Below, one piece after another: positions 1 through 15,871 of a DNA stretch of 16,557 bases. Positions within the stretch are counted from its first letter, which is position 1; every line of letters begins with the position of its first letter. The position numbers were made by a program, and so were the translations under genes. The stretch covers positions 1-16,557 of the forward strand of contig JAUQYZ020000185.1 in the NCBI GenBank assembly GCA_030587475.2, written 5' to 3'. The DNA comes from Candidatus Sigynarchaeum calidifontis (GTDB taxonomy: Archaea; Asgardarchaeota; Lokiarchaeia; Sigyniarchaeales; Sigyniarchaeaceae). The notes beneath the pieces are model-generated. The model had not been told where the DNA came from and searched no databases. It saw nothing but the letters and a program-made list of their open reading frames with translations.

Positions 1-1370
1 AAAACATGTTGTTGAAAGCAGTGAATGCAAAGGGGTATGACCCCTCCGTTGCTTCGTTGATATCCTTTACCAGGACCGTGCCATCGGCCGTGCCGTCGGT
101 GTTCCACAGCTCTCGCCCGTGAACGCTATCAAGCGCGCTGAAATAAATTGCACCATTGAAGATGATCATCTCCGAAGGCTGGGATTCTCCCGTTCCTGGA
201 TTGATGTCCTTGACCAGGATCGTACCCGCGGTCGTGCCATCGCTCTTCCAGAGCTCATACCCAAGAGTGACGTTATACGCGCTGAAATAGAGCGCGCCGT
301 TGAAAATGGTGAATCCAAGAAGATACGAGCCACCTGTTCCTTCATTGATGTCCTTGACCAAGATCGTGCCCGCGGTCGTGCCATCGCTCTTCCACAACTC
401 GCGCCCGAACGTGGTGTCAAACGCATCGAAATAGAGGGCTCCGTTGAAAACGGTCAATCTAGTCGGACCCGAACCTTCCGCTCCTCCAAGGATATCCTTG
501 ACCAGGAGCGTGCCCGCGCCCGTGCCGTCGCTCTTCCACAGTTCATACCCATTAATATTATCATTTGCCATAAAATAGAGCGCGCCGTTGAAAATGGTGC
601 ATGTACCCGGACAAGAACTTCCCTGCCCCGCCCAAATATCCTTGACGAGGACCGTGCCCGCGGCCGTGCCGTTGCTCTTCCACAATTCCCGCCCGTACGT
701 TTCATCATACGCGTTGAAATAGAGCGTGTTGTTGAAAACGATGAATCCCAATGGACTCGAATACTCTAACCCCGCGTTGATATCCTTCACCAGGGTCGTG
801 CCAGCGGCCGTGCCGTTGCTTTTCCACAGCTCGATCCCGTGCACGTTATCAAGTGCGTTGAAATAGAACTCGTTATTGAAGATGGTGAATCTTGAAGGAG
901 AAGAGCCCCCTGGTCCCGTGTTGATGTCCTTGACCAGGACCGTCCCCACGGGAGTGCCGTCGGTTTTCCATAGTTCCTGCCCGTGAGTGTCATCGGACGC
1001 GCGGAAATAGAGCGCGTCGTTGAAAATGATAAGTTCAGCGGGATCCGAGCTTGCTGTCCCAACGTTGATATCCTTAACCAAGACCGTGCCGGCGGCCGTG
1101 CCATCGGTCTTCCACAGTTCTCGCCCGTGAATGTCGTCATAGGCGCTGAAATAGAGCGCGCCGTTGAACACGATGAGTTCCGTGATTTGCGAGCCCCCCG
1201 TTCCCACGTTGATGTCTTTCACCATGGCAGTACCCGCGGTAGTGCCATCGGTTTTCCACAGCTCGCGCCCGTGGGTGCTGTTGAATGCACTGAAATAGAG
1301 CATGTTGTTGAAGATAACAAACGTGCCCGGTTCAGAGCTTGATGTATATGTGTCGATGTCTTTTAACAGA
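1..1370 (-). repeat. Coding tandem repeat with an exact 144-bp (48-aa) period, at least 9 units
   Basis: The Glu codons of the ELW motifs start at 1264, 1120, 976, 832, 688, 544, 400, 256 and 112, a constant 144-bp spacing with no indels. Confidence 0.92.
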
Positions 1371-1546
1371 GACGTGACAATCGCCTCGCTCGGCGTTTTA
1401 CCGTTGTCATTGCTCGTGATGAGAAACAAGCTCAAAGGCAAGCCAACTGCAACGATGACCGCGATGAGGAGCAGAACTCGCATTTTTGGATTCAAGTTTC
1501 TGAGGAAAGATTTCAATGAAGTAATAAACGACCGGTCCTTAGCCAT
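1..1546 (-). CDS. ELWxxDGT-repeat beta-propeller surface protein with N-terminal signal/TM anchor (3' end outside the window)
   Basis: Manual translation of the minus strand from ATG at 1546 (GAGGTG SD-like at 1561-1556) has no stop to the window edge: MAKDRSFITSLKSFLRNLNPKMRVLLLIAVIVAVGLPLSLFLITS, then 48-aa repeats such as FNGALYFSAYDDIHGRELWKTDGTAAGTVLVKDINVG. Nine ELW(K/N)(T/S)(D/N)GT motifs. Probably missing from the ORF track because no stop lies in the window. Confidence 0.93.
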   Translation of the reverse strand, partial: MAKDRSFITSLKSFLRNLNPKMRVLLLIAVIVAVGLPLSLFLITSNDNGKTPSEAIVTSLLKDIDTYTSSSEPGTFVIFNNMLYFSAFNSTHGRELWKTDGTTAGTAMVKDINVGTGGSQITELIVFNGALYFSAYDDIHGRELWKTDGTAAGTVLVKDINVGTASSDPAELIIFNDALYFRASDDTHGQELWKTDGTPVGTVLVKDINTGPGGSSPSRFTIFNNEFYFNALDNVHGIELWKSNGTAAGTTLVKDINAGLEYSSPLGFIVFNNTLYFNAYDETYGRELWKSNGTAAGTVLVKDIWAGQGSSCPGTCTIFNGALYFMANDNINGYELWKSDGTGAGTLLVKDILGGAEGSGPTRLTVFNGALYFDAFDTTFGRELWKSDGTTAGTILVKDINEGTGGSYLLGFTIFNGALYFSAYNVTLGYELWKSDGTTAGTILVKDINPGTGESQPSEMIIFNGAIYFSALDSVHGRELWNTDGTADGTVLVKDINEATEGSYPFAFTAFNNMF

Positions 1547-1859
1547 TTCTTCATGCACCTCTGATAGTGGAAGTATCAAGAAAAGTGATCAGACCATTTC
1601 AAATACTTCGTGATAACCGATGGAACCGATGCATTAACAGAGATTCTTGAGGTTATCAACTTAGCTCCAGATCAATGATTGACAACACGTGCCGGGTCCT
1701 CAATCGGTCATTCTCAGCGAGTTGCGATTTTAAACTCCATTTTTTTTAGCAGCATTCCGCATCTATCATTGAAGCTTGCAGGGTTGCAATTGTACCGCCC
1801 GCGACCGATGTTCGGCTTTTTGTATTCATGTTTAGGGCCATGTTCCTTTAGATTATGAT

Positions 1860-2495: not shown

Positions 2496-2628
2496 TTTAA
2501 GGCGGGCCCTTATTAACCTTTCTCACAAGCATTAAATATCGGGACCCATTATTGATGGTAATACAATAAGTAAAAACAATGAAATCAATTACTCACGATA
2601 ATAATTCCATGCAATTGAAGTGAACACG
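2496..2628. promoter_or_regulatory. Divergent promoter region with back-to-back BRE/TATA-like boxes and a candidate operator
   Basis: Minus strand GAAAGG-TTAATAAG (about 2522-2509), plus strand ACAAGC-ATTAAATA (2525-2538), and an inverted repeat TTATTG-N9-CAATAA (2549-2569) at the expected plus-strand start site. Identified by eye only. Confidence 0.5.
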
Positions 2629-3882
2629 ATGGCCCAGAAACAATGGAAGTTCGATACCCTCGTAATCCACGGGGCTCAAACCCCGGATCAATGGAGATCG
2701 ACAACGATTGCTCCGATCTACCAAAGTGCATCGCATCGATTCGAAACCGGGGAAGAATTATCCGATGTTTTCGCGGGTAAAAAGCCCGGGTTTATTTATC
2801 AGCGGCTCCGAAATCCGACCAATGACGTGCTCGAAAAGCGATTAGCTTTGCTCGAAGACGGGGCTGAAACGGTCGTAACGGGATCCGGAATGGCGGCGAT
2901 TAACGACACGGTGCTCGCGATTTGCCATGCAGGAGACGAGGTCGTTTCGGGGAATTCCGTGTTCATGTCAACTTACCTGCTATTCTCAAGCGTGCTCAAA
3001 AAATTCGGCATCAACGTCAAGTTCGTGGAATCGAGCGACGTCCGCGCATGGCAAAACGCCGTTACAAGGAGCACGAAGCTGCTCTTTCTCGAATCCATCG
3101 GCAATCCAAAGCTCGACGTGCCAGACATCAAGAAGATAGCCGCCATCGCGCACGAAAACGAGGCCCCACTCATCGTTGACAATACCTTGGCGACGCCATA
3201 TCTCGTCCGCCCATTTCAACATGGTGCCGACATCATCGTGCATTCAACGACAAAGTACTTGAACGGGCATGGATCGGCAATCGGTGGCGCCATCATCGAT
3301 TCGGGGAGATTCGATTGGCCAGACAACAAGTTCCCGGATTTCAAGCCTTTCAAGGACAGGAGGGGTGCCCTGGCATTCATCGACCGCGCCTGGCGGGAGA
3401 TCCACATCAATTTCGGAACGAGTCAAGCTCCACTACACAGTTACTTGACGCTGATCGGGCTCGATACCTTTGCCCTCCGCATGGAACGTCACTGTGCTAA
3501 CGCCTTGAAACTGGCACAATTCTTGAGCAAGCATCCAAAAGTGAAGTGGGTCAACTATCCTGGCCTCCAGGGGTGCATCGGGCACGAAACGGCAAAAGCC
3601 CAATTCCAAGGCAAGGGTTTCGGTGGATTGGTGACGTTCGGGCTAGAACACCAGAAGGCTTGCCTTGATTTCATCCGGAACGTCAAGCTTGCCTATCACC
3701 TGGCCAACTTGGGCGATTGCAAGACGCTGATCATCCATCCCTGGTCATCCCAATACATTAACTTCCCAGAACCTGTCAGGGTCGCCAACGGCATAAGCCC
3801 GGACATGATCCGCGTGGCGGTTGGCATCGAAGCAATCGAAGACATCATCGATGATTTCGACCAAGCACTCCGTTCGGTCTGA
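2629..3882 (+). CDS. metY: O-acetylhomoserine sulfhydrylase (aminocarboxypropyltransferase)-like PLP enzyme, Cys/Met metabolism family
   Basis: PLP-lysine motif HSTTKYLNGHG, plus IYQRLRNPT, SGMAAI, ESIGNP, VDNT, ANLGD and the MetY-type insert IIDSGRFDW..KFP. ATG at 2629. Several active-site positions deviate (see findings). Confidence 0.82.
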   Translation: MAQKQWKFDTLVIHGAQTPDQWRSTTIAPIYQSASHRFETGEELSDVFAGKKPGFIYQRLRNPTNDVLEKRLALLEDGAETVVTGSGMAAINDTVLAICHAGDEVVSGNSVFMSTYLLFSSVLKKFGINVKFVESSDVRAWQNAVTRSTKLLFLESIGNPKLDVPDIKKIAAIAHENEAPLIVDNTLATPYLVRPFQHGADIIVHSTTKYLNGHGSAIGGAIIDSGRFDWPDNKFPDFKPFKDRRGALAFIDRAWREIHINFGTSQAPLHSYLTLIGLDTFALRMERHCANALKLAQFLSKHPKVKWVNYPGLQGCIGHETAKAQFQGKGFGGLVTFGLEHQKACLDFIRNVKLAYHLANLGDCKTLIIHPWSSQYINFPEPVRVANGISPDMIRVAVGIEAIEDIIDDFDQALRSV

Positions 3883-3902
3883 ACGGCCATCGAGAAGGTG
3901 AA

Positions 3903-5102
3903 ATGCGATTGACAGCGGCATTTGTTAGCGAAAACGCACAGAACACGGGGTCTCGGCCTGCACCCGCGCAAGAGCACGAAATAATCTTCCCTGGGACGAA
4001 ATTTTTTCACGTTCCGGGATCGTTGCAGCTGGATTCTGGTCAATCACTTGATCACGCCATCCTTGCCTACGAGACGTACGGCACGCTGAATGCACGGCGA
4101 GACAATTGCATCTTGATCTGCCACGCGCTCTCGGGAAGCTCACACGTGTTTCAAGGGTCTGATACCGCCAGCCCTGGCGGATGGTGGGATCCGATGGGCG
4201 CGCCAGGCGCGTGCTTCGATCCGGCGCGATATTTCGTCGTGTGCGTGAACTTGCTCGGATCTTGCTATGGCTCCTCGGGCCCCGCATCGATCAATCCATC
4301 GACTGGCAAGCCCTATGGCTTGTCTTTCCCTGTCGTGACCGTGGGGGATAGCGTCAGGGCCCAGCACATCTTGATCCACCATCTTGGGGTGGACAAGATC
4401 CTCGCGGTCGTTGGAGGCTCGCTGGGTGGCATGCAAGCCCTCACGTGGGCCATCGCGTATCCAGACCACGTGGTCTCGACCATCCCGATCGCCACGTCGT
4501 GCCAATCATCAGCACAGAACATCGCGTTTCACGAGGTCGGTCGCCAGGCCATCAAGGCAGACCCCAATTTCAATTGCGGGGATTACTATGGCAAGGCTAT
4601 CCCTGAAACCGGGCTCGCCATCGCTCGGATGATCGGCCATATCACCTACTTGAGCGAAACGTCCATGCGGCAAAAGTTTGGCCGGAAGCTCCAGGATGCC
4701 AGCGTGCTGCGCTTCGGCTTTTCAACGGATTTCGCCGTGGAAGGGTACTTGAAACACAAGGGCCAGGCGTTCACGAAACGATTCGACGCGAATGCATACC
4801 TGTACTTGACAAAGGCCGTCGATTATTTCGATCTCACGAACGGCGGCACGAGGACGCTGTCACAAGCATTCTCCACGGTCAAGTCCCGGTTTCTCGTGCT
4901 TTCATACTCGTCCGACTGGCTCTATCCACCGCAAGAATCCAAGTTGCTGGTGCAAGCACTCAAGGCAAACCATCTCCCCGTGTCATATTGCAACATCGAA
5001 TCTGGTTACGGCCATGATGCTTTCTTGCTCGAGGCAGCGACCCAGAATGAGATCATCGGAAACTTTCTCAAGGCATTGGGAACCGGAGGTGTGGCCGAGT
5101 GA
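3903..5102 (+). CDS. metX: Homoserine O-acyltransferase (MetX family, alpha/beta hydrolase)
   Basis: AYETYGTLN, ICHALSG, nucleophile GGSLGGMQ, ARMIGHITYLS, RFDANAY, SSDWLYP, GHDAFLLE; SD-like AAGGTGA upstream. Confidence 0.95.
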   Translation: MRLTAAFVSENAQNTGSRPAPAQEHEIIFPGTKFFHVPGSLQLDSGQSLDHAILAYETYGTLNARRDNCILICHALSGSSHVFQGSDTASPGGWWDPMGAPGACFDPARYFVVCVNLLGSCYGSSGPASINPSTGKPYGLSFPVVTVGDSVRAQHILIHHLGVDKILAVVGGSLGGMQALTWAIAYPDHVVSTIPIATSCQSSAQNIAFHEVGRQAIKADPNFNCGDYYGKAIPETGLAIARMIGHITYLSETSMRQKFGRKLQDASVLRFGFSTDFAVEGYLKHKGQAFTKRFDANAYLYLTKAVDYFDLTNGGTRTLSQAFSTVKSRFLVLSYSSDWLYPPQESKLLVQALKANHLPVSYCNIESGYGHDAFLLEAATQNEIIGNFLKALGTGGVAE

Positions 5103-5800
5103 ATGGCAAGGATCCCGTTGATCACGAGTGGATCACACGTTTGATTCCACCTGGATCCCGCGTGCTTGACCTGGGTTGCGGGAACGGGGCTTTACTTGCA
5201 AAGCTCAAAAATGAGAAAGGAGTGCAAGGATCTGGCGTCGAGATCTCGCAACATTGCATCCAAGCTTGCATCGCAAAAGGAATACCCGCGATTCAAGCGG
5301 ACCTCGATGAAGGGCTTAAGGATTATCCAGATAAGGCTTTTGACTTCGTCGTTCTCTGCCGCACGCTACATCTCGTGCATCGGCCGGCATTTGTCTTGTC
5401 GGAAGCCATGCGTATTGGAAAACACGTGATTATAAGCTTTGAAAACGAGGCATACTGGAAGAATCGAATTAGATTTCTATTTAACGGAGAATTTTCCACG
5501 GAAAAAGGGCATCACGACATACTTGCACAAGATCACGTGCGAAACTACTTGACGGTGACGCGGTTGGAAACGCTCGCCCAGCGCATGGGTATCAAGATCG
5601 AGCGGAGATGTTTCTCCCGGGCACTTGGTTACGGCGAAGTGGTTTTATTTCCGAATCTCCGGGCAAAGCTCGCCTTATTCGTGCTGACTAGAATCGGATC
5701 TTCGAAATTAATCTCCACGTCGAATGAAGATGATTTCGAGATGAAAAAATCGAAAACATCATCAATAGACCATGCTCCACATCTATATAATCCCGTTTAA
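5099..5800 (+). CDS. metW: Methionine biosynthesis protein MetW (SAM-binding methyltransferase fold)
   Basis: IPPGSRVLDLGCGNG, IQADLDEGL, FDFVVL; GTGA start/stop overlap with metX, the typical metXW arrangement. Confidence 0.9.
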   Translation: MNGKDPVDHEWITRLIPPGSRVLDLGCGNGALLAKLKNEKGVQGSGVEISQHCIQACIAKGIPAIQADLDEGLKDYPDKAFDFVVLCRTLHLVHRPAFVLSEAMRIGKHVIISFENEAYWKNRIRFLFNGEFSTEKGHHDILAQDHVRNYLTVTRLETLAQRMGIKIERRCFSRALGYGEVVLFPNLRAKLALFVLTRIGSSKLISTSNEDDFEMKKSKTSSIDHAPHLYNPV

Positions 5801-5827
5801 CATGATGCTCTTAGAGGTGTGCATCGA

Positions 5828-6757
5828 ATGCCATCGAAGGTCTACAATACAATCTTGGAAACCATCGGGAACACGCCACTCGTCCGGTTACACAAGCTAT
5901 CCGAGGGCTTGAAAGCGTCGATCTATGGAAAAGCAGAATATTTCAACCCGGCCCACTCGGTCAAGGACAGGATTGCTCTTGCAATGATCGAGGAAGCAGA
6001 AAAGGCACGAATAATCAAGCCCGGGGATACGATCGTGGAGCCCACCTCGGGAAACACGGGTATTGGGCTCGCGCTCGTTGCAGCCGTCAAGGGATACAAG
6101 ATCATCCTCGTGATGCCCGAATCAATGACTGTTGAACGTAGAAAAATTCTCAAGGCATTCGGTGCCGAGCTCGTGCTCACGCCAGCTGCCGAAGGCATGA
6201 AAGGGGCGGTGAGCAAGGCAGAGGAACTGCACCAGCAAGGGCGGGCTGCATATATCCCTCAACAATTCAAAAACAAGGCGAACCCGGAGGTACACTATCG
6301 AACGACCGGGCCTGAAATATACGAGGCCTTGCAGGGCAAGATCGATGTATTTGTAGCCGCGGTCGGCACGGGCGGCACCATCACCGGCGCTGGTCGCTAC
6401 TTGCGTGAAAAACTCGGTTCCAGGGTGCGGATCGTCGCCGTCGAGCCGAGAGAGTCTCCCGTACTATCTGGCGGAAAGCCGGCCCCGCACAAGATTCAAG
6501 GCATCGGTGCTGGTTTCGTGCCAGGCGTGCTCGATACACGCATCTATGACGAGGTGCGTCTCGTCTCTGCCGATGATGCAATTGCCACGTCGAGGCGCTT
6601 GGCCAGCACGGAGGGCATCTTCGTTGGCATATCCGCGGGAGCGAATGTATGGGTGGCGCTGCAAATCGCCAAGGAAATGAATACATCCGCAAACATAGTT
6701 ACGATACTGTGCGACACAGGCGAACGTTACCTTTCCAATCCTTTATGGGACTTGTGA
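5828..6757 (+). CDS. cysK: Cysteine synthase A (O-acetylserine sulfhydrylase)
   Basis: [18 protein letters not shown] (PLP Lys), [40 protein letters not shown] at 5814-5819 favours ATG 5828. Confidence 0.96.
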
Positions 6758-6779
6758 AGGGGATGGTGGCAATCATACC

Positions 6780-7610
6780 ATGAAAAGCGATAATCCAATC
6801 AACAAGTGCCTCGCCTGCGGGGCAACGACAAAGGAACACACGGAAAGCCTTTGCGTTAACTGCTTGTTGGGGCTCGAAATTCCGGAGATCGACTTGACGA
6901 CATCCGAGGTGCGTGGCACGTTCAAGTCCATATTGGAATTCTTCAAGTCCGACGTGTATGCCGCGTTCGAGAAGGATCCCGCCGCGTATTCCGTGACGGA
7001 AGTGCTGACCTCCTACCCCGGCATCAAGGCGACGCTGATATACCGCGTCGCCCATCTATTCTGGGTCTTGAAGGTTCCCCTTGTCCCGCGGTACATGTCC
7101 GAGATGGCCCGTGAATTGACCGGCATCGACATCCACCCAGGCGCGAAGATCGGGCGGGAATTCTTCATCGATCACGGCACGGGCGTGGTCATCGGGGAAA
7201 CGGCCGAGATTGGCGACAATGTCACGCTTTATCAAGGTGTCACGCTCGGTGGCGTGAGCTTGCAGCGCGGGAAGCGCCATCCCACGCTAGGAAACAACGT
7301 CGTGGTAGGTGCCGGTGCCAAGATCCTTGGCCCGATCGTGATCGGGAACAACGTCAAGATCGGAGCCAATTCAGTTGTCACCAATGACGTCCCGGACAAC
7401 GCGGTCGTGGTCGGGATCCCCGGGCGTGTCATCGCCCGCGACATCGAGCACATTCCACGCATCGATCTCCAGCATGCAAACCTTCCAGATCCGGTTGCCG
7501 ACGTGATACGCGCGCTTGAAAACCGCATCATCTCGCTCGAGAAAAGGAGGATGTCGGATGACGATGCACTTCGGGACGCGGGTCAATTTTCCATGGGCTT
7601 GGGGATCTGA
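6780..7610 (+). CDS. cysE: Serine O-acetyltransferase with an N-terminal CxxC-x11-CxxC extension
   Basis: [39 protein letters not shown] hexapeptide-repeat domain; C-terminus FSMGLGI. Confidence 0.95.
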
Positions 7611-7684: not shown

Positions 7685-10600
7685 TTAAGAGGAATAACAC
7701 GTTCTATTGATGATGCTCAACTTCAGCTCGTCGGAAAGCTCGTTGAAGTAGGCGCAATATCCAGCGATGCGAACCATGAGATACTTGTGCTTCTCCGGGT
7801 GCTTGTAGGCGTCTAGCAATATCTCCCGGTTCACGACGTTAGGTTGCAACTGCATTCCTCCGGTCGTGAGGAATGTCTTGAATATGCTGGCCAGGTTCTT
7901 CACGCCTTCCTTGCCCTGGAAAAGAGATGCATCGATCGTGAACGTGACCGTCGTGCCGTTCTCGGCATGCTCGGCGAAATCGACGCCGGAGATGGCATTG
8001 AGAGCCGATAGCAAGTCGTTCTGCTTCATCCCGTAGTGCGGTGTGACGCTGTTCGCGAATGGCACGCCTTTCAACCGTCCCGATGGCAGTGCTTGAGTAT
8101 TTTGGCCGTACCGGTGGGCGACGTTCAAGGCATAATAGCCGGCCGAGTACCTTCCATTCCGGGGGCAGTTCGGGACCGATTCCAGTGCCTTGTTATACAT
8201 GGCCATGACCTTGTTCACCCATTCCGTGGCTTCGCGGGACGAGTCATCTCCGAATTTCGGCACTGCAAGCAACGCGGCCCTGATACGCTTGTAATAGTCC
8301 CCTTGGAAATTGGCGTCGATGGCCTTGATGACGTCCATGATGGGGAAAAGCCTCTTCTTGAACACGACTTCGTCGATCGCGTGGAGCGAGTCCGCGACGT
8401 CCGTGACGCCCACCGCTTGAATGCCGCTGCTATTGAATGTCGTGCCGCCCTCGTTCACGTCTTTCCCGCTTTCGACGCATCCCTTGAAAAGTGCCGATGA
8501 AAGCGGCGTGGTGAAGTGCTCGCGAAGTTCCTTTTCGATGCGTTGGTGATCAGCCAATATCGATTGCGTGAGACGGTTTAATCGCTTCTGGAAACGGGCC
8601 AGCAGTTCGTCCATGCTCGATGGCGGGTTGTACTTGTAATACCCCTTTTTCACGTGACGCATTTCAACTGCCCTGTTGTAGGCCGTGATGATGCCCCTGG
8701 AAAGAACATCTTTCCCCTTGATAAAATACGGGACAAATCGGTTCAACAATTTCTCAACCCGATCAATGAATCCGAAGTTCCACAAGTCATGTTCTTGCCC
8801 CTTCAAGGCTTGCAAGAATGGCTGGGGCAAACACACGTTGGCGCAGTCCGTGTTGCCGAAATGGTCGTCCGAGGCGTTCGGTTCGACACAACCAACTATC
8901 GCATAGTTCCGCGCGTTTTCAAGGGTGGTCGGGTAGTGTTTCATGATGGCTTTTATGTAGATATCGTCGCTGTTTAGTTTCGGCTGGGGGCAGCCGCTAA
9001 TATACACTTCCGCGAGCCGCTCGAGATACTTGGCGGGACTGCCCTTGTGGATCCGCGCCGTCATGTCGATGGCGAGCGGTTGCAGCTCGCACGCGTCTAT
9101 CAGCATGTAGGTGACGTCGTTGGTGGCATCGTTGCCATCCTTGTCAACGCCCCCAAAGGTTATTGTCTGGTCGATGGACAAGGTTTCGAAAAGCTTGTAG
9201 ATGCTCAAGATGGAATTGCCATCGTTTACAAAAATGTCCTCGTCCATCTTGAGAATGAACAAGCAGAGGAGTTCCTTTGCCTTTTCATAAGTGATGATTC
9301 CTGCTTCCTTGTCCTTCTTGTAATAAGGGTACAATATCTGGTCGAGTCTCCCGAAAGAGAGCGCGTTTTCGTAGGTTTCAGTGCAGAGCGCGATTTGCAA
9401 GAATAGCATGCTCTGCAAGGCTTCGTGGAAGGTGCGGGCAGGATATTTCGGGACATGCTTGCAGATCTCGGCCATTTCCTCCAGCTCTTTGCGACGTTCT
9501 GGATTCGACTCGGCTTTACTCATTTCGGATAGCTTGTCGGCGTACCGCTGCGCGAAGGCTTCCAATCCTTCGAGGGCGATTATGGCGCCTTTATAAAAGT
9601 TTTGATTATTCTCGGGTTTCTCTTTCTGTTTTGCTTTTAACTCCTCAATTAGACCCGTGGTACCCAATTGAAGGATCCGCTCGAAGTTGACGATGAAGTG
9701 CGCTATCGCGGCGCCGTTGTTGTTGAACCCGGCGTTCAGCTCGGCGATCCGCGCCACCATCTCGATGAAATCCCACAATCTCGGATAAACCTTCCTCACG
9801 AGGCTGTGCTTGTACCAGAATGGGAATATCTTGAAATAAAAGTACAGCCTTTCCTCGAACGTGCAATGGAAAGGAACCGGTTTTTGACGGTTGATCCAGG
9901 GCAAGAACATGATCGCGAGAATGCCGTAATGCTCTTCCCAAAGTTGACCACCCACCCTCTTGGACGTGAAATTACCGACGAGTAATTCATCGGGATAGAT
10001 CTTGACCGTCTTGTTTTTCAAAACATACGCGAGGCGTTCCGCCCTGTGAATGGGATTGGGTTTTTTGAACCCATTTTTCTTGTAGAATTCCGTTTTGAGC
10101 CTTGCAACCTCGATGCAGAGGGCCCGGGGAGCTTTCCTTATGGCATTCTGTATGCGTTGCACACGTTTCGTGAAAGCGGCTCGATGGATGGTCGTGTCCA
10201 GTTCCGTGTTCTCGGCCGTGATGCCATGCTCCCTGAACAGTTCAACTCCCTTCTTGAGCGACGCGAGGCTTTGCTCGGGAGTGATGTTGAGCATCGGGAT
10301 GTCGATGCCGAGGCGCCTGGCCTTGTCCTCGTAAAGGTTATGGTATTTCATCAGCTCGATCGAATCGTACTTTATCTTTTTCAAGAAATCGGCGGTTGCC
10401 CGAATGTTACTCGCGCCATCTGTGTACCCGGGCACCATGACCATACGGAACTTGATATTGGCCTTCAATTCGAGAAGTTTCATGATGTTGGTATGGATCA
10501 ACGTGCTGTCTTGTTTCGTATATTTCTTGTGGAGCTCGTCGTCGCCGACGATCTTGAGATCGACGATGAATAGGTCTATGAACGGCGCGATCTTGCTGAT

Positions 10601-10981
10601 GTTCTTCCATGGGACGTTAAGTGTCGTTTCAGCCGAGATGTGGATGTTCTCTTTCTTCAATTCCTTTAACAAGCGGGATAGCATATCCGGATCTTGCAAC
10701 AAAGGTTCCCCGCCACTCAGCGTGACACCGCCAGTCGTCGGGAGATAATATGGTTTGTCCCTCGATACTACTTCCATTATCTCGTCGACCGAATATTCGA
10801 TGTCGGGGGTCTTGTCGCCTTGAAGTGACTGGCCTTCCGGGTTCTGGCACCACAAGCATCGCAGGTTGCACCCTTGAAAGAAGATCGTCGTGCGTATTCC
10901 TGGGCCATCATACACGCAAGTGCGTTGTATCTTGAATAGTTTGAGTGTTTGAGGCTTCTGGAGGCTCTGGATTATTTGCAT
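7685..10981 (-). CDS. Fusion of a glycyl-radical-enzyme activase (radical SAM, about aa 1-255) and a PFL-superfamily glycyl radical enzyme (about aa 270-1098)
   Basis: Activase: DGPGIRTTIFFQGCNLRCLWCQNPEG (C38/C42/C45), GGVTLSGGEPLLQ, IELMKYHNL. GRE: IYPDELLVG, PARTFHEALQ, SFGRLDQILYPYY, TFGGVD..GNDATN, Cys loop IVGCVEP (C698), PKFGDD, ALPSGRLKG, Gly loop LMVRIAGY (G1074). One uninterrupted ORF with SD GAGGAG upstream. Confidence 0.95.
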   Translation of the reverse strand: MQIIQSLQKPQTLKLFKIQRTCVYDGPGIRTTIFFQGCNLRCLWCQNPEGQSLQGDKTPDIEYSVDEIMEVVSRDKPYYLPTTGGVTLSGGEPLLQDPDMLSRLLKELKKENIHISAETTLNVPWKNISKIAPFIDLFIVDLKIVGDDELHKKYTKQDSTLIHTNIMKLLELKANIKFRMVMVPGYTDGASNIRATADFLKKIKYDSIELMKYHNLYEDKARRLGIDIPMLNITPEQSLASLKKGVELFREHGITAENTELDTTIHRAAFTKRVQRIQNAIRKAPRALCIEVARLKTEFYKKNGFKKPNPIHRAERLAYVLKNKTVKIYPDELLVGNFTSKRVGGQLWEEHYGILAIMFLPWINRQKPVPFHCTFEERLYFYFKIFPFWYKHSLVRKVYPRLWDFIEMVARIAELNAGFNNNGAAIAHFIVNFERILQLGTTGLIEELKAKQKEKPENNQNFYKGAIIALEGLEAFAQRYADKLSEMSKAESNPERRKELEEMAEICKHVPKYPARTFHEALQSMLFLQIALCTETYENALSFGRLDQILYPYYKKDKEAGIITYEKAKELLCLFILKMDEDIFVNDGNSILSIYKLFETLSIDQTITFGGVDKDGNDATNDVTYMLIDACELQPLAIDMTARIHKGSPAKYLERLAEVYISGCPQPKLNSDDIYIKAIMKHYPTTLENARNYAIVGCVEPNASDDHFGNTDCANVCLPQPFLQALKGQEHDLWNFGFIDRVEKLLNRFVPYFIKGKDVLSRGIITAYNRAVEMRHVKKGYYKYNPPSSMDELLARFQKRLNRLTQSILADHQRIEKELREHFTTPLSSALFKGCVESGKDVNEGGTTFNSSGIQAVGVTDVADSLHAIDEVVFKKRLFPIMDVIKAIDANFQGDYYKRIRAALLAVPKFGDDSSREATEWVNKVMAMYNKALESVPNCPRNGRYSAGYYALNVAHRYGQNTQALPSGRLKGVPFANSVTPHYGMKQNDLLSALNAISGVDFAEHAENGTTVTFTIDASLFQGKEGVKNLASIFKTFLTTGGMQLQPNVVNREILLDAYKHPEKHKYLMVRIAGYCAYFNELSDELKLSIINRTCYSS

Positions 10982-11133
10982 TCTATACTCCTCGTGATCA
11001 CGTTCTTTTTTCTTGCAATGACCAATACCTCTACCAATTCATGCAAGCATGGTAATGCATGCGCTTCCGTCGAGTTCGTAACAATGTTTTTCCGAGAACT
11101 TAATAACTTGATACTTATTTGATATTAAAGCAC

Positions 11134-11373: not shown

Positions 11374-12678
11374 CTACCTCTTTGAATGCTTCCGTACAAG
11401 CCAGAAGATGACCACGAACACGAAACCCGCGTTTGCGCCGACGATGATGTAATTATCCCAAGGCACCGTGATTTCCGGTGAAAGCGGATGGGCGGCCGCG
11501 TCGAACAAGCTCGCGATCGACATGTTTACCATGATGATGTCCGACGGCAAAAACATGCCGAGAGCCCATGCGTAGTCCTTCGTGGTATCGCAAGTGTAAT
11601 AGCACATGTAGATGCGGTCTCCCTGGATGATCACGCCGCCATACGCGGTATCGCCCGAGCTCGGCAAGTCGGATATATACATCATGGATGGCTTTCCAGA
11701 CAAGTTCTTGAACTCGAAGAGCGACGTGCGCTTCCGGCTGAAGATGCTACCGGTTCCCGTGAACATGTTGTCCACGTCGGGCTGGAACCGTCCAAGCGCA
11801 AAGTATCGGGTCACGTTCGACGTGTCGTTGAGCCTGAACAAGTTAGGGCCATCGAGGCGCGTCAGCTTCTCGAGCGTGTAATTCCAGCTCGTGTATGGCG
11901 GGGCGGCAATAGCGAGCCCCGTGCCGGCGTTAACATCGCCGAACACGGAATCCTTCTGTACCTCGACTCGAATCGTGATAAGAATACGCTTGTCGTTTAA
12001 AATGACGAGCTCGGCCTCATCACTGCCCGGCGTCATTGATGCACCGGTAACTTGCGAAACCTTCGTCCAGTTGACGCCATCCGTCGTGCTTAGAAGGCAG
12101 CACTGCCCTTTTTCGAACCAATAGCCCGTCGTGTACCACGTGATGTTGTCGATCGATTTTGGGCGCCAGAATAACCAGCCTTGCTGGTTGGGGACGTCTC
12201 TCGGCTCGCTCCAGGTCAAGCCGTCCGAGGAGTTCACGAACGCGGTGCCGTAGGGATCTGCGATGAAGCCGGTATTTTTCAAGTAATAGATGAAGAGTTG
12301 GCCATTGATGGGCGCGAATTTGGGATCCCGGATGTCCTCGCCAGGAACCCGCATGTCCATGATGTGCGTCCACGTGTGCAAGTCTGTGCCCCGGTTCAGC
12401 GAAAGAAACGTCGTCGTCGATCCTTGATTTCCAGGCTGGTTCGCATAGATGAAATAGTAATACCCGTTCCAATAGATCAGGTCGGTATTGGCGTTGTGGC
12501 GACCGTTCGAGACCGCAACCCAGGACGAGAATTTGAGTCGATCATTGACTCGATACGTGCTAGGTCGCACTGCCCACCAGAGAAACAAGCTGCCTGCGAG
12601 TATCAAGAAAAAGATGATGGCGAGGAACAAGCCTTGGATGAAATGCTTCACTTTCGTGAGTACTTTTTTGGAATCCAT
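11374..12678 (-). CDS. Membrane-anchored Asp-box (BNR) beta-propeller, sialidase/glycoside hydrolase-like
   Basis: N-terminal TM (FIQGLFLAIIFFLILAGSLFLWW) and C-terminal TM with basic tail (YIIVGANAGFVFVVIFWLVRKHSKR); Asp-box-like GTDLHTW, SSDGLTW, TTDGVNW; HNANTDL, DIRDPK, GDTAYGG. ATG 12678 is preferred because it lies about 23 bp below a TATA-like box. Confidence 0.75.
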   Translation of the reverse strand: MDSKKVLTKVKHFIQGLFLAIIFFLILAGSLFLWWAVRPSTYRVNDRLKFSSWVAVSNGRHNANTDLIYWNGYYYFIYANQPGNQGSTTTFLSLNRGTDLHTWTHIMDMRVPGEDIRDPKFAPINGQLFIYYLKNTGFIADPYGTAFVNSSDGLTWSEPRDVPNQQGWLFWRPKSIDNITWYTTGYWFEKGQCCLLSTTDGVNWTKVSQVTGASMTPGSDEAELVILNDKRILITIRVEVQKDSVFGDVNAGTGLAIAAPPYTSWNYTLEKLTRLDGPNLFRLNDTSNVTRYFALGRFQPDVDNMFTGTGSIFSRKRTSLFEFKNLSGKPSMMYISDLPSSGDTAYGGVIIQGDRIYMCYYTCDTTKDYAWALGMFLPSDIIMVNMSIASLFDAAAHPLSPEITVPWDNYIIVGANAGFVFVVIFWLVRKHSKR

Positions 12679-12700
12679 GAATTGAATATTAGAATCAGCC

Positions 12701-12713
12701 CTTAAATAGGTTT
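12701..12713 (-). promoter_or_regulatory. BRE/TATA-like box, suggesting a leaderless transcript
   Basis: Minus strand AAACCTATTTAAG, nearly identical to the box upstream of the GRE fusion and ending about 23 bp above ATG 12678; no SD is visible. Confidence 0.5.
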
Positions 12714-12859
12714 GACGAGAAAAGCGAAACATGCTGGTAGATCTTTTCGCGTTGCTTCCCGAATGTCGAAAACCGCTATGGATGGTAATCGGTCAGATAA
12801 CAATGGCCGCTGGAATGCCGTTAGCATCAGCATGAAAAGCTAGATAAAAAGAAAGGATC

Positions 12860-14464
12860 CTAGAGCCGGATGATTTTCGCATCCATGATGTTCGGCAATT
12901 TCAGCAATTCAGCCATCACGTCAGGCGGGATGATGTCGTCGATCGTGATGATTGCCAGTGCCTTCTCGCCCTTTTGCCGCCGGCCGAGCTGCCAGCCCGC
13001 GATGTTGATGTTGTTCTTGCCGAGCAGCGTGCCCACGTTGCCGATCACGCCCGGCCGGTCGTTGTTGACGAGCGCGAGCATGTAGTCCGCGGGGGCGATC
13101 TCCAAATAGAGCTCGTTGATCTCGACGATGCGCGGCTTGTCGGAGAAAACGGTTCCTGCAACCTCCACGCGATCATCCTTGTCCGTCTTGACGCTCAGCT
13201 TGATGATCGTTTCATAATTCACCGGCTTGTCATATTTATCCACGACGACGTTTATCCCGTTGTCCTTGATGACCTTTTCGACGTTCATCAGCGTGACGTT
13301 TTCGCTGAAACGGTCTGTGAAGAGCGCGTGCAAGATCGTGGCCTTGATCGGCTCGAAATTCGTGAAGACGTCGCCCTTGTACTTGATGCCCACCTCCACG
13401 AAACGACCCGGCTGGAACTGGCTCACGAACCTGCCGAGCATCACGCTGAGTTCCATGTATGGCTTGTATAGCTCGGCCATTTGCTCTGAAATCTGGAAGG
13501 GAATATTAACAGCGTCGATGAAAACCTTGGAAAGCAGTGCCTTGGCCACGTGATCCGCAGCCATCCTTGCGACCTCGATCTGGGCCTCGACCGTGCTCGC
13601 GCCGATGTGCGGCGTCGTGATCACGTTTTCGAGCCCGATGAAGGGAAAATCTGCCTTGCACGCCGGTTCCTTGGAATAAACGTCGATGCACGCGCCGCCG
13701 ATCCGCTTTTCCGCGAGGGCCTGGTGGAGGGCTTTCTCGTCGATGACCTCACCTCGCGAGGCGTTGATGATGATCGCTGTTTTTTTCATCTTGGCAAGCT
13801 GCTCCTTTCCAATCAAGTTGCGGGTTTGTTCCGTGAGGGGGGTATGGATCGTTATGTAGTCCGATTGTTTCAACAAGTCATCCAGGTCGTCCACCAGCTT
13901 CACGCCCAGCTCCTCTGCACGCTTGGCCGGGATGAACTTGTCGTAGGCGAGGACTTTCATCTCGAACGCCAGGCATCGCTTCGCCACGCCGGCGCCGATG
14001 CGGCCGAGACCGATGATGCCCACGGTCTTGCCCTTGAGCTCGGTCCCTTCGAGTTTCTTCTTTTCCCACTTGTCCATCGCCATGGTCTGGTTTGCAAGCG
14101 AGATGTGGCGCGCTGCATCGAGCATGAAGCCCATGGTGAGCTCGATGACCGCGTTGGAATTGCCGAGGGGCGTGATGAGCACCACGATGCCCCGTTTCGT
14201 GCACGCGTCCGCGTCGATGTTGTCGTAGCCCGTGCCCGCCCGCGCGACCACCTTCAAGTTCTTCGCAGCTGCGATGATATCAGCTGACAGCTTGGTCGCG
14301 CTGCGCACGATGATCGCGTCGTACACGGGTATTATTTGAGCCAGTTCTTCCTTGGTGAGCTTTGGTTTCACGTCGACCGAAAATTCCTTGAAGCCCTTGA
14401 GGATGTCGATGCCCTCTTGCGCGAGTCCATCGGCGACCAATATCTTGAATTTCTTATTCTCCAT
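12860..14464 (-). CDS. serA: D-3-phosphoglycerate dehydrogenase, long (type I) form with ASB and ACT domains
   Basis: IIVRSATK, ARAGTGYDNID, GIIGLGRIG, INASRG, DVYSKEP, TPHIGASTVEAQ, an ASB-length middle region and ACT NNDRPGVIGNVG; 534 aa. Confidence 0.93.
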   Translation of the reverse strand: MENKKFKILVADGLAQEGIDILKGFKEFSVDVKPKLTKEELAQIIPVYDAIIVRSATKLSADIIAAAKNLKVVARAGTGYDNIDADACTKRGIVVLITPLGNSNAVIELTMGFMLDAARHISLANQTMAMDKWEKKKLEGTELKGKTVGIIGLGRIGAGVAKRCLAFEMKVLAYDKFIPAKRAEELGVKLVDDLDDLLKQSDYITIHTPLTEQTRNLIGKEQLAKMKKTAIIINASRGEVIDEKALHQALAEKRIGGACIDVYSKEPACKADFPFIGLENVITTPHIGASTVEAQIEVARMAADHVAKALLSKVFIDAVNIPFQISEQMAELYKPYMELSVMLGRFVSQFQPGRFVEVGIKYKGDVFTNFEPIKATILHALFTDRFSENVTLMNVEKVIKDNGINVVVDKYDKPVNYETIIKLSVKTDKDDRVEVAGTVFSDKPRIVEINELYLEIAPADYMLALVNNDRPGVIGNVGTLLGKNNINIAGWQLGRRQKGEKALAIITIDDIIPPDVMAELLKLPNIMDAKIIRL

Positions 14465-14613
14465 GTGCCCTCACGAATGTCGTTTCGAGCCGTTTGCTTG
14501 GAATGTTACTCGTCGGGTCTAAAAAGGATCCGGCGGTTAATGGATTTCTTCTCGTGGATGGCGACGAAAGCCCGTGCGGCAAGCATTTCCGAAACTGGTA
14601 GACGATACGTTTT

Positions 14614-14635
14614 GCGAGGGGAAGTCTCCCCTTGC
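14614..14635. other. GC-rich hairpin immediately after the stop of the upstream serA
   Basis: GCGAGGGGA-AGTC-TCCCCTTGC, a 9-bp stem with one non-canonical pair; no downstream U-tract on either strand. Confidence 0.5.
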
Positions 14636-15871
14636 TCAGGATATCACGCGAACGCGGATCGTGCCGGGCGCGGCTTGGAGCCTGCTCAAGGCATCGGCGC
14701 TGAACTCGGATTCCACGTCCGTGACCGCGTAGCCGATGGCCTGGTTGGTTTGCAAGTACTGGCCGGCGATGTTCACGTGGAGGTCGGAGAACACGCTGTT
14801 GATGGCGGACAAGACGCCGGGAATGTTCTTGTGGACGTGGAGCACGCGGTGCCGTCCCGGTAACCCGAACAACGACACCTGGGGAAAGTTGACCGACATG
14901 CTCGTCGAGCCAAACAGCACGAAGTTGATGAGCTTCTCGCTGACCTCCTCGCCGATGTGCATTTGCGCTTCTTGCGTGCTGCCCGCGATGTGCGGCGTGA
15001 GGATCACGTTGTCCAGGTCCTGGAGCGGGGTGCAAAACTTGTCCCCGTCGCACGATGGCTCCTCGGGAAACACGTCGATCGCGGCGCCGCTGATCCTCCC
15101 GCTTCGCAAGGCTTCCGCCAGGGCGGGAATGTTCACGACGGAGCCACGCGACGCGTTGATGAAAACGCAGCCTGGCTTCATCATGGCAAATTGTTCCGTG
15201 CTGATCATGTTTTTCGTGAACGGGGTTTCGGGAACATGCAGCGTTATGACATCGCATTCCTGGAGCAGCTTCTTGAGGTTGGGCGCGGGGAGGACGTTGC
15301 CGTGGGGCAATTTCGGCACGATGTCGTAGAAACAAACGCGCATGCCGATCGCCTCGGCGAGGTAACCGAGCTGGGTCCCGATGTTGCCGTAACCGATGAT
15401 GCCGAGCTTTTTCCCCCGCACCTCGTACGAGTTTGGAGAACCCTTCTGCCAAATGGAGCGGTGGAGCTGGGCGTTTTTCTCGGGCACGCCGCGCATCAGC
15501 ATGATGATCTCGCCGAGCACCATCTCCGCCACGCTGCGCGTGTTGGAATACGGCCCGTTGAAGACCGGGATACCGATGGACGTGGCGGTCTTGAGATCGA
15601 TCTGGTTCGTGCCGATGCAGAATGCCCCGATGACGAGCAAGTCCTTCGCCGCGGGGGACGCGAGCACGCGGCTCGTGATTTGCGTGCGTGACCTGATGCC
15701 GAGCACGTCGACATCCGGCAGCCTTTTCATGAGTTCCTCCTCGCTCAATGCGCCCTTAACGGTTTCGATGTTCTTGAAACCGGCGGCCTTGAAGTTCTCG
15801 ACCGCTGACTCGTGAATGCCTTCCAGGAGCAGTATTTTCGTCTCTTCTTTGCGTGCACGGGCATCGAGCAT
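14636..15871 (-). CDS. serA: D-3-phosphoglycerate dehydrogenase, E. coli-like (type II) form with ACT domain only
   Basis: KILLLEGIH, GIRSRTQ, GAFCIGTNQIDL, NTRSVAE, GYGNIGTQL, TPHIAGSTQEAQ, SVNFP and ACT HVHKNIPGVL; 411 aa. Confidence 0.95.
   Translation of the reverse strand: MLDARARKEETKILLLEGIHESAVENFKAAGFKNIETVKGALSEEELMKRLPDVDVLGIRSRTQITSRVLASPAAKDLLVIGAFCIGTNQIDLKTATSIGIPVFNGPYSNTRSVAEMVLGEIIMLMRGVPEKNAQLHRSIWQKGSPNSYEVRGKKLGIIGYGNIGTQLGYLAEAIGMRVCFYDIVPKLPHGNVLPAPNLKKLLQECDVITLHVPETPFTKNMISTEQFAMMKPGCVFINASRGSVVNIPALAEALRSGRISGAAIDVFPEEPSCDGDKFCTPLQDLDNVILTPHIAGSTQEAQMHIGEEVSEKLINFVLFGSTSMSVNFPQVSLFGLPGRHRVLHVHKNIPGVLSAINSVFSDLHVNIAGQYLQTNQAIGYAVTDVESEFSADALSRLQAAPGTIRVRVIS

Follow-up and report, generated by a model that had tools for sequence, protein, structure and literature searches.

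The 16,557-nucleotide contig JAUQYZ020000185.1 of Candidatus Sigynarchaeum calidifontis, analyzed over its full length and hereafter called the window, encodes a protein of 1098 amino acids (7685..10981, reverse strand, as are all features of this gene given below) in which a radical S-adenosylmethionine (SAM) activase is fused to the N terminus of a glycyl radical enzyme (GRE). We propose that this protein is probably a self-activating GRE. A preliminary description of the window had put forward such an enzyme, with activase and GRE held at a 1:1 ratio, and this is also our best reading because the fusion is conserved, the catalytic residues are kept in both halves, and the halves are predicted to share an interface. 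These findings support the architecture, from which we infer activation itself.

In the mechanism that we envisage, the N-terminal domain would bind a [4Fe-4S] cluster and SAM, and a linker of fixed length would keep it beside the glycyl radical domain. The latter would swing out of the barrel, and the 5'-deoxyadenosyl radical would abstract a hydrogen from G1074. Once the Gly loop had returned, the radical would move on to C698, and C698 and E700 would perform a 1,2-elimination or a C-O-cleaving isomerization on a small hydroxylated group. Both radical formation and the reaction class are here extrapolated from known GRE chemistry.

Conservation of the fusion and of its two halves

As the preliminary description had stated, the gene is a single open reading frame (ORF), with one frame translating into 1098 residues and zero internal stops. 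Pfam places Radical_SAM at residues 33-189, PFL-like from residue 271, and Gly_radical at residues 976-1080. The same genome encodes a second full-length fused copy on another contig (C205), with 69% identity. In all 147 of the closest database homologs, the nearest of which come from Promethearchaeota (Lokiarchaeota), the chain of the GRE includes activase sequence; the best 120 are 1047-1146 amino acids long, share 65-78% identity, and match both halves. When homologs were ranked by the GRE part alone, the best 120 were all at least 915 amino acids long, with none of stand-alone size. Thirteen of the 147 lack the cysteine motif of the activase, but these begin inside the activase, and none starts at the start of the GRE; short activase relatives end at scattered positions. 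Thus, an assembly artifact or a lost stop codon that joined two genes is vanishingly improbable, because the fused paralog and more than 140 clusters of fused homologs, which come from independent samples and share the fixed linker, exclude a sequencing artifact. The preliminary description had allowed that the homologs might always be split, which is not so: three candidate natural splits (loci L012, L178, and L179) were opened and rejected, as they proved to be frameshifts or a scaffold gap. The fusion is real and is kept in well above 100 uncultured anaerobes.

Among the named hosts of the fusion are Promethearchaeota, Hodarchaeota, Smithella, Desulfomonilia, Spirochaetes, and Clostridia, with Eubacteriales and Christensenellales also named. 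Clustered at 50% identity, the core family comprises very few clusters. Matches spanning the junction were found in 12 of 400 genomes of the host phylum, many of them incomplete, and all 12 belong to one order; the spread within the phylum is therefore patchy. Several Promethearchaeota genomes, including the present one, have two fused copies, and one locus (L164:10001-16798) carries two in tandem, P0035 and a 1109-amino acid paralog. The database names of the homologs, such as "radical SAM protein" and "formate C-acetyltransferase," are automatic.

The linker comprises residues 257-270 (10172..10213). Its place agrees with the preliminary description; its length is 14 residues, where about 15 had been given. 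Of the 147 homologs, 145 have exactly 21 residues from G253 to R273, and F270 and R273 are invariant. With such a pattern, the linker resembles a connector of set length rather than a loose tether.

The activase domain (residues 13-256; 10214..10945) is of the short form, and the CxxCxxCxxxC motif of the ferredoxin insert was not found in it. It passes TIGR02494 (208.8 bits; cut-off, 174.35) and aligns, without a long insert, to the activating enzyme of pyruvate formate-lyase (PFL-AE; 3C8F/8FO0, E 1e-23 to 1e-25). The preliminary description had called the activase intact, and the CX3CX2C [4Fe-4S] motif (C38/C42/C45, followed by N47, which corresponds to PFL-AE Asn38; 10847..10870) and the GGEP SAM-binding motif (residues 90-93; 10703..10714) lie where it placed them. 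The DGPG motif (10898..10909) contains D25, which aligns with PFL-AE Asp16; in PFL-AE, Asp16 and Asn38 are anchors for the glycine loop. D25 is present in all 134 homologs that span the position, and D25, C38, C42, C45, N47, E118, T119, D141, K143, and R179 are kept wherever covered among the 147. Position 92 is glutamate or aspartate in every homolog covering it, the SAM-binding motif reading GGE in 107 and GGD in 37 of 144. The Escherichia coli PFL-AE (3C8F, 3CB8, 8FO0) is likewise short, with no ferredoxin insert, and aligns with the activase half at Asp16, Asn38, CX3CX2C, GGE, and later motifs; however, it is a free monomer that acts on PFL, whereas the activase of the fusion is tethered to an eliminase-type GRE. 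Most GRE activases carry the ferredoxin insert, and characterized eliminase-type GREs mostly use the long form of activase.

The GRE domain (residues 271-1098; 7688..10171) belongs to the PFL-like GREs, having PF02901 and PF01228, a ten-stranded barrel, a Cys loop, and a C-terminal Gly loop. In a Foldseek search its best match was AfPFL2 (2F3O; target-normalized template-modeling score, 0.94; identity, 29%), to which it also aligns by phmmer with an E value of 5.6e-102. Propanediol and glycerol dehydratases came next, with identities of 26-29% among the top matches, while the succinate synthases (BSS and MASS, 46th-50th and below all eliminases) and HPAD lay at the bottom of the 50 matches. 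The Cys loop GCVEP (residues 697-701; 8879..8893), with catalytic C698 and E700 forming the CXE motif, and the invariant Gly loop RIAGY (residues 1071-1075, including G1074; 7757..7771), within the glycyl radical domain (residues 976-1096; 7694..8056), are positioned as first described, and the GRE is complete. C698-V-E700 is kept in 147 of 147 homologs, as are H428, E538, N539, A540, D604, T711, D712, Y950, and G1074. Mean conservation is alike in the two halves (0.74 vs. 0.77-0.81), and by their sequences both look functional.

Predicted docking and the route of activation

AlphaFold2 modeled the whole chain with a mean pLDDT of 89.9 and a predicted template-modeling score (pTM) of 0.89. By a rough calculation, an unplaced activase would be expected to give a pTM of 0.75-0.82; because the observed value exceeds this range, the tethered activase has a defined position. 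The halves were also submitted to a two-chain complex prediction from which the linker and the residues up to 344 (257-344) had been removed. This gave a score of 0.76, compared with 0.00 for the best of three controls, with partner pLDDT of at least 85 and at least 97% of contacts shared between runs. Of 80 solved complexes, 58 attained the mark set for this score, as did 2 of 110 mismatched pairs; with our own alignment these counts are approximate.

The predicted contacts join activase residues 19-29 and 71-82 to GRE residues 913-914, 989-995, 1020-1040, and 1096, such that the glycine-loop-binding face of the activase is predicted to dock on the glycyl radical domain. The flanks of D25 (residues 19-23 and 27-29) sit in this interface. 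The docking face corresponds to the region of PFL-AE that moves on peptide binding and is there predicted to contact PFL, and its conservation is above average (0.84 vs. 0.73; 0.81 vs. 0.77). When covariation between activase and GRE was scored by mutual information, variable surface positions filled the top ranks; most of the predicted contacts fall at near-invariant positions.

We consider activation in cis most likely, with the balance of probability, a sizeable minority, falling to activation across the dimer or by both routes. Self-activation strictly in trans, in which the tethered activase would act on the glycine loop of the other subunit within a dimer or tetramer, is a less probable alternative that nonetheless deserves serious consideration: GREs are homodimers or tetramers (2026 review), and the dock is predicted even with the linker removed and is silent on which chain gives the loop. 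However, in the single-chain model the activase is confidently placed although no second subunit is present, the glycyl radical domain sits at the periphery of the dimer, and the linker is short and fixed in length.

Several points weigh against self-activation as we propose it. The halves of this one gene represent a textbook enzyme pair, and such pairs tend to pass docking; according to a review, however, there is no structure of a full activase-GRE complex, only of PFL-AE with a peptide. G1074 is outside the predicted interface, and the docked model shows a closed, parked state. The pose of the activase may differ between the tethered model and the dock obtained without the linker, so that the cis route is a tentative reading. 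In PFL, a 1:1 activase ratio gives faster installation of the radical but also faster radical loss, which a permanent fusion would somehow have to avoid.

Reaction class and substrate

The GRE half is most likely a CXE-type eliminase or isomerase, as CXE marks 1,2-eliminases and isomerases (PMC13450708). It reaches the cut-off of no characterized GRE family. The best GRE model, the PFL2/glycerol dehydratase subfamily TIGR01774, fails (490.1 bits; cut-off, 678.2). The PFL model TIGR01255 also fails (105.7 vs. 994.2 bits), and the protein has a single Cys and no adjacent Cys-Cys pair. The protein also scores below the cut-offs of the NCBIfam models for CutC (329 vs. a cut-off of 1050), HypD (348/1100), HpfG (368/1000), IAD (240/1100), and HPAD (216/1150).

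Pairwise alignment with propanediol dehydratase equates its His166, Cys438, Glu440, Asp452, and Tyr694 with H428, C698, E700, D712, and Y950. H428 (9698..9700), also equivalent to His164 of glycerol dehydratase, is invariant in 147 of 147 homologs, as is D712, which lies in an NTDC motif (8843..8854). In contrast, His283 and Ser284 are replaced by the invariant N539 and A540, and Val696 by L952. The invariant E538-N539-A540 (9362..9370) thus stands in place of the Gly-His-Ser of diol dehydratases. A family-specific F-E-T-x-S-x-D-Q segment (residues 598-605; 9167..9190) includes the invariant D604, where diol and choline enzymes carry Phe; the nearest relatives have other signatures in this segment. 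Judged by sequence alignment, the residues lining the pocket would be polar and acidic, which suggests a substrate with a hydroxylated, perhaps amine-bearing, group. An invariant active site with no match suggests a reaction outside those already assigned, in Asgard archaea and syntrophic bacteria.

AfPFL2 (PDB 2F3O), an archaeal GRE of debated function, is the best match by both sequence and structure. It has a single Cys and a CXE motif, with a His where the fusion has H428, an Asp in place of D712, and a Glu in place of E538; however, its 776-amino acid chain has no activase domain and no long region corresponding to residues 728-787, and its residues at the positions of 539 and 598-604 differ. 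The B12-independent glycerol and 1,2-propanediol dehydratases (1R8W/1R9D, 5I2G, 9RCO) have the same fold, the CXE motif, and the His166/Asp452/Tyr694 equivalents, but rely on a separate activase, share only 26-28% identity with the fusion, and have a His283/Ser284 pair that is not kept in it. An ordinary diol or glycerol dehydratase, fused merely for convenience of co-expression and gene transfer, is in our estimation unlikely. AfPFL2 and the propanediol and glycerol dehydratases are the top structural matches, and the counterparts of His166, Cys438, Glu440, Asp452, and Tyr694 are present; moreover, patchy spread (12 of 400 genomes, one order) and a solitary context would suit a mobile fusion, as argued for the NrdDG proteins described below. 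Against this stand the invariant N539/A540 and D604 in place of His283/Ser284 and Phe, the identity of only 26-29%, and the fact that aldehyde-handling genes are not conserved beside the gene.

Gene neighborhoods were compared at 25 loci, where no Pfam family recurred in more than three members among 74 flanking genes. Clustering of the neighborhoods revealed only lineage-specific synteny, and the gene is usually solitary. Conserved neighbors that would back a pathway are absent, which also counts against our proposal. At one locus (L085:9264-13772), the region downstream of the fusion holds convergent genes for an aldehyde ferredoxin oxidoreductase, an iron alcohol dehydrogenase, and an SCP2 protein; these would suit an aldehyde product, but the arrangement occurs in one lineage and is not conserved elsewhere.

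A further feature of the family is a specific helical region at residues 728-787 (8621..8800), which has about 61 residues where relatives have about 21, with a mean net charge of +5.6 and ~10 aromatics. This basic, aromatic insert might be a membrane anchor, and the enzyme might act on a polar lipid head, for example by C-O cleavage of a glycerol ether or by dehydration of a lipid diol or amino-alcohol; we regard this as improbable, a membrane anchor for a lipid-linked substrate being possible but weakly supported. Beyond the extra length of about 40 residues and the charge, helix 759-778 has a mean charge of +6 and a high hydrophobic moment. The hosts include Smithella, Desulfomonilia, and Promethearchaeota, which are degraders of lipids and fatty acids, and scattered neighbors include an acyl-CoA ligase/acyltransferase, an FAD oxidase, and, in 3 of the 74 flanking genes, FadR-like regulators. 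That C-O ether bonds are within reach of CXE enzymes is known from YbiW and PflD (2026 review). However, the neighbors are not conserved, several ordinary helices have equal hydrophobic moments, the charge of segment 372-414 overlaps that of relatives, the insert may be an oligomer surface, and an SCP2 domain was not detected by Pfam in a sister GRE of the same genome. The fullest version, a self-activating, membrane-associated GRE with a permanently docked activase and a reaction new to GREs (for instance, cleaving glycerol lipids at the ether bond or head group without oxygen) in sediment Asgard archaea and syntrophic bacteria, is speculative and doubtful.

An activity put forward for some PFL2-like enzymes of archaea, hydrocarbon activation by an alkyl- or benzylsuccinate synthase, is very unlikely here. 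This function has been suggested for AfPFL2, the closest structure, similar Asgard GREs are so annotated (PMC8163825), and Smithella is among the hosts. Yet the CXE loop is of the eliminase type, BSS and MASS rank below all eliminases in the structure search, the BssD model TIGR04003 scores 133.7 against a cut-off of 496.45, no small-subunit genes were seen beside the gene, and the activase has no ferredoxin boxes.

Genomic context, origin, and precedents

A putative ribosome-binding-site-like motif, GAGGAG (10988..10993), lies 7 nucleotides 5' of the ATG; scans for promoters and terminators gave results at chance level. The preliminary description had reported no separate activase gene in the window, and indeed no other GRE activase was found on the contig. 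Elsewhere in the genome, the only others are the fused paralog (C205) and two stand-alone activases beside other GREs (C226 and C266). The genome encodes three ordinary GREs, two of which adjoin a separate activase, while the third is cut by a contig end. One GRE on contig C266 (L002:4617-7568) has a long N-terminal extension in which Pfam found no family; this extension and that of another GRE (L157:5113-8391) measure about 190 and 290 residues, respectively, and neither contains an activase.

Directly upstream of the fusion, on the same strand and 392 nucleotides from its start, a gene at 11374-12732 encodes a 452-amino acid membrane-anchored protein with weak beta-propeller (BNR-like) matches. 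It is preceded by a tandem pair of SerA-like D-2-hydroxyacid dehydrogenases (12860-15871, reverse strand); the 534-amino acid member of the pair also lies upstream of the fusion in a close relative (L011). Convergent on the fusion gene is a run of genes at 2620-7610 (forward strand) that, by sequence features, is a sulfur amino acid operon, encoding a sulfhydrylase, a homoserine acyltransferase, a MetW-like methyltransferase, a cysteine synthase, and a serine acetyltransferase. This Met/Cys operon is not conserved near homologs of the fusion. A helix-turn-helix-CBS regulator (1860-2495) is divergent to it. At the edge of the window, an open-ended ORF (2-1579, reverse strand) has an N-terminal hydrophobic stretch and 48-amino acid ELWxxDGT repeats in 144-bp tandem units (8.5 copies), probably a surface beta-propeller; the forward-strand ORF at 119-769 is its shadow.

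A single well-supported clade, set on a long branch, unites the core fusions. The ferredoxin insert is retained in more distant fusions of 33-39% identity (P0123, P0126, P0134, P0237, P0269, P0272, and L108), among which are proteins from Oligoflexia and from an anaerobic eukaryote, Anaeramoeba flamelloides; a partial Waddliaceae protein falls with them. The probable origin of the fusion is read-through between neighboring genes, the activase first and the GRE second, a route that we offer because in most of the nearest unfused relatives the activase gene directly precedes the GRE gene and touches or overlaps it. The core clade would then have acquired the short activase later, and the fusion probably travels as a one-gene module. 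The GRE tree needs three changes to account for the fusion, and an approximately unbiased test on one clade gave no rejection (p 0.104); the activase tree is weakly resolved. The A. flamelloides fusion (P0126, KAJ3428281.1; L083:8001-11411) lies in one uninterrupted frame on a 7.2-Mb contig, with a GC content of 34% compared with 22% in its flanks. It is divergent, with a DGPG motif that has lost its Asp, a Cys loop reading GSCEL, and a Gly loop reading PLSGN, and may be altered or inactive. A 1188-amino acid fusion with ferredoxin insert (P0272; L167:6109-9675) is followed by a zinc alcohol dehydrogenase gene. Its contig is gene-sparse, also encodes a protein kinase and a reverse transcriptase, and may stem from another eukaryote.

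Compared with characterized GREs, oxygen-sensitive enzymes whose activases the preliminary description had noted to be separately encoded, the fusion stands apart; its principle, however, is precedented. Several fungi and oomycetes are reported to carry single-ORF NrdD-NrdG fusions (Lundin et al. 2010, PMC3019208). Like the present protein, these NrdDG fusions combine a GRE with a radical-SAM activase in one ORF and have a patchy spread, there by gene transfer, but they are class III ribonucleotide reductases, belong to the other GRE division, occur in eukaryotes only, and are known from sequence alone (PMC3019208). The GRE half studied here matches only PFL-like families in Pfam and NCBIfam, with no NrdD-type catalytic domain. 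In the ESM Atlas, a "formate C-acetyltransferase" cluster of ~1133 amino acids, commonest in diatoms, has PFL-like, Gly_radical, and Fer4_12 domains in 98-100% of members; compared by domain content only, it is probably another activase-GRE fusion and probably a true PFL. A fusion of PFL and its activase has reportedly been described in diatoms. A structure search of the ESM Atlas with our fusion returned only a generic GRE. In an incomplete literature search, neither this family nor any other prokaryotic fusion of an activase to an eliminase-type GRE turned up, and the words "fused" and "fusion" are both absent from the 2026 review of GREs. Thus, although activase-GRE fusion has precedents, the present family is apparently unstudied.

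As a natural one-chain activase-GRE, the protein offers a single construct for cryo-electron microscopy of the full activation complex. Its architecture also allows cis and trans activation to be separated by mixing mutants and provides a template for engineered self-activating GREs. Lastly, it poses a puzzle: a 1:1 ratio of activase shortens the life of the radical in PFL, yet the fusion fixes just such a ratio.

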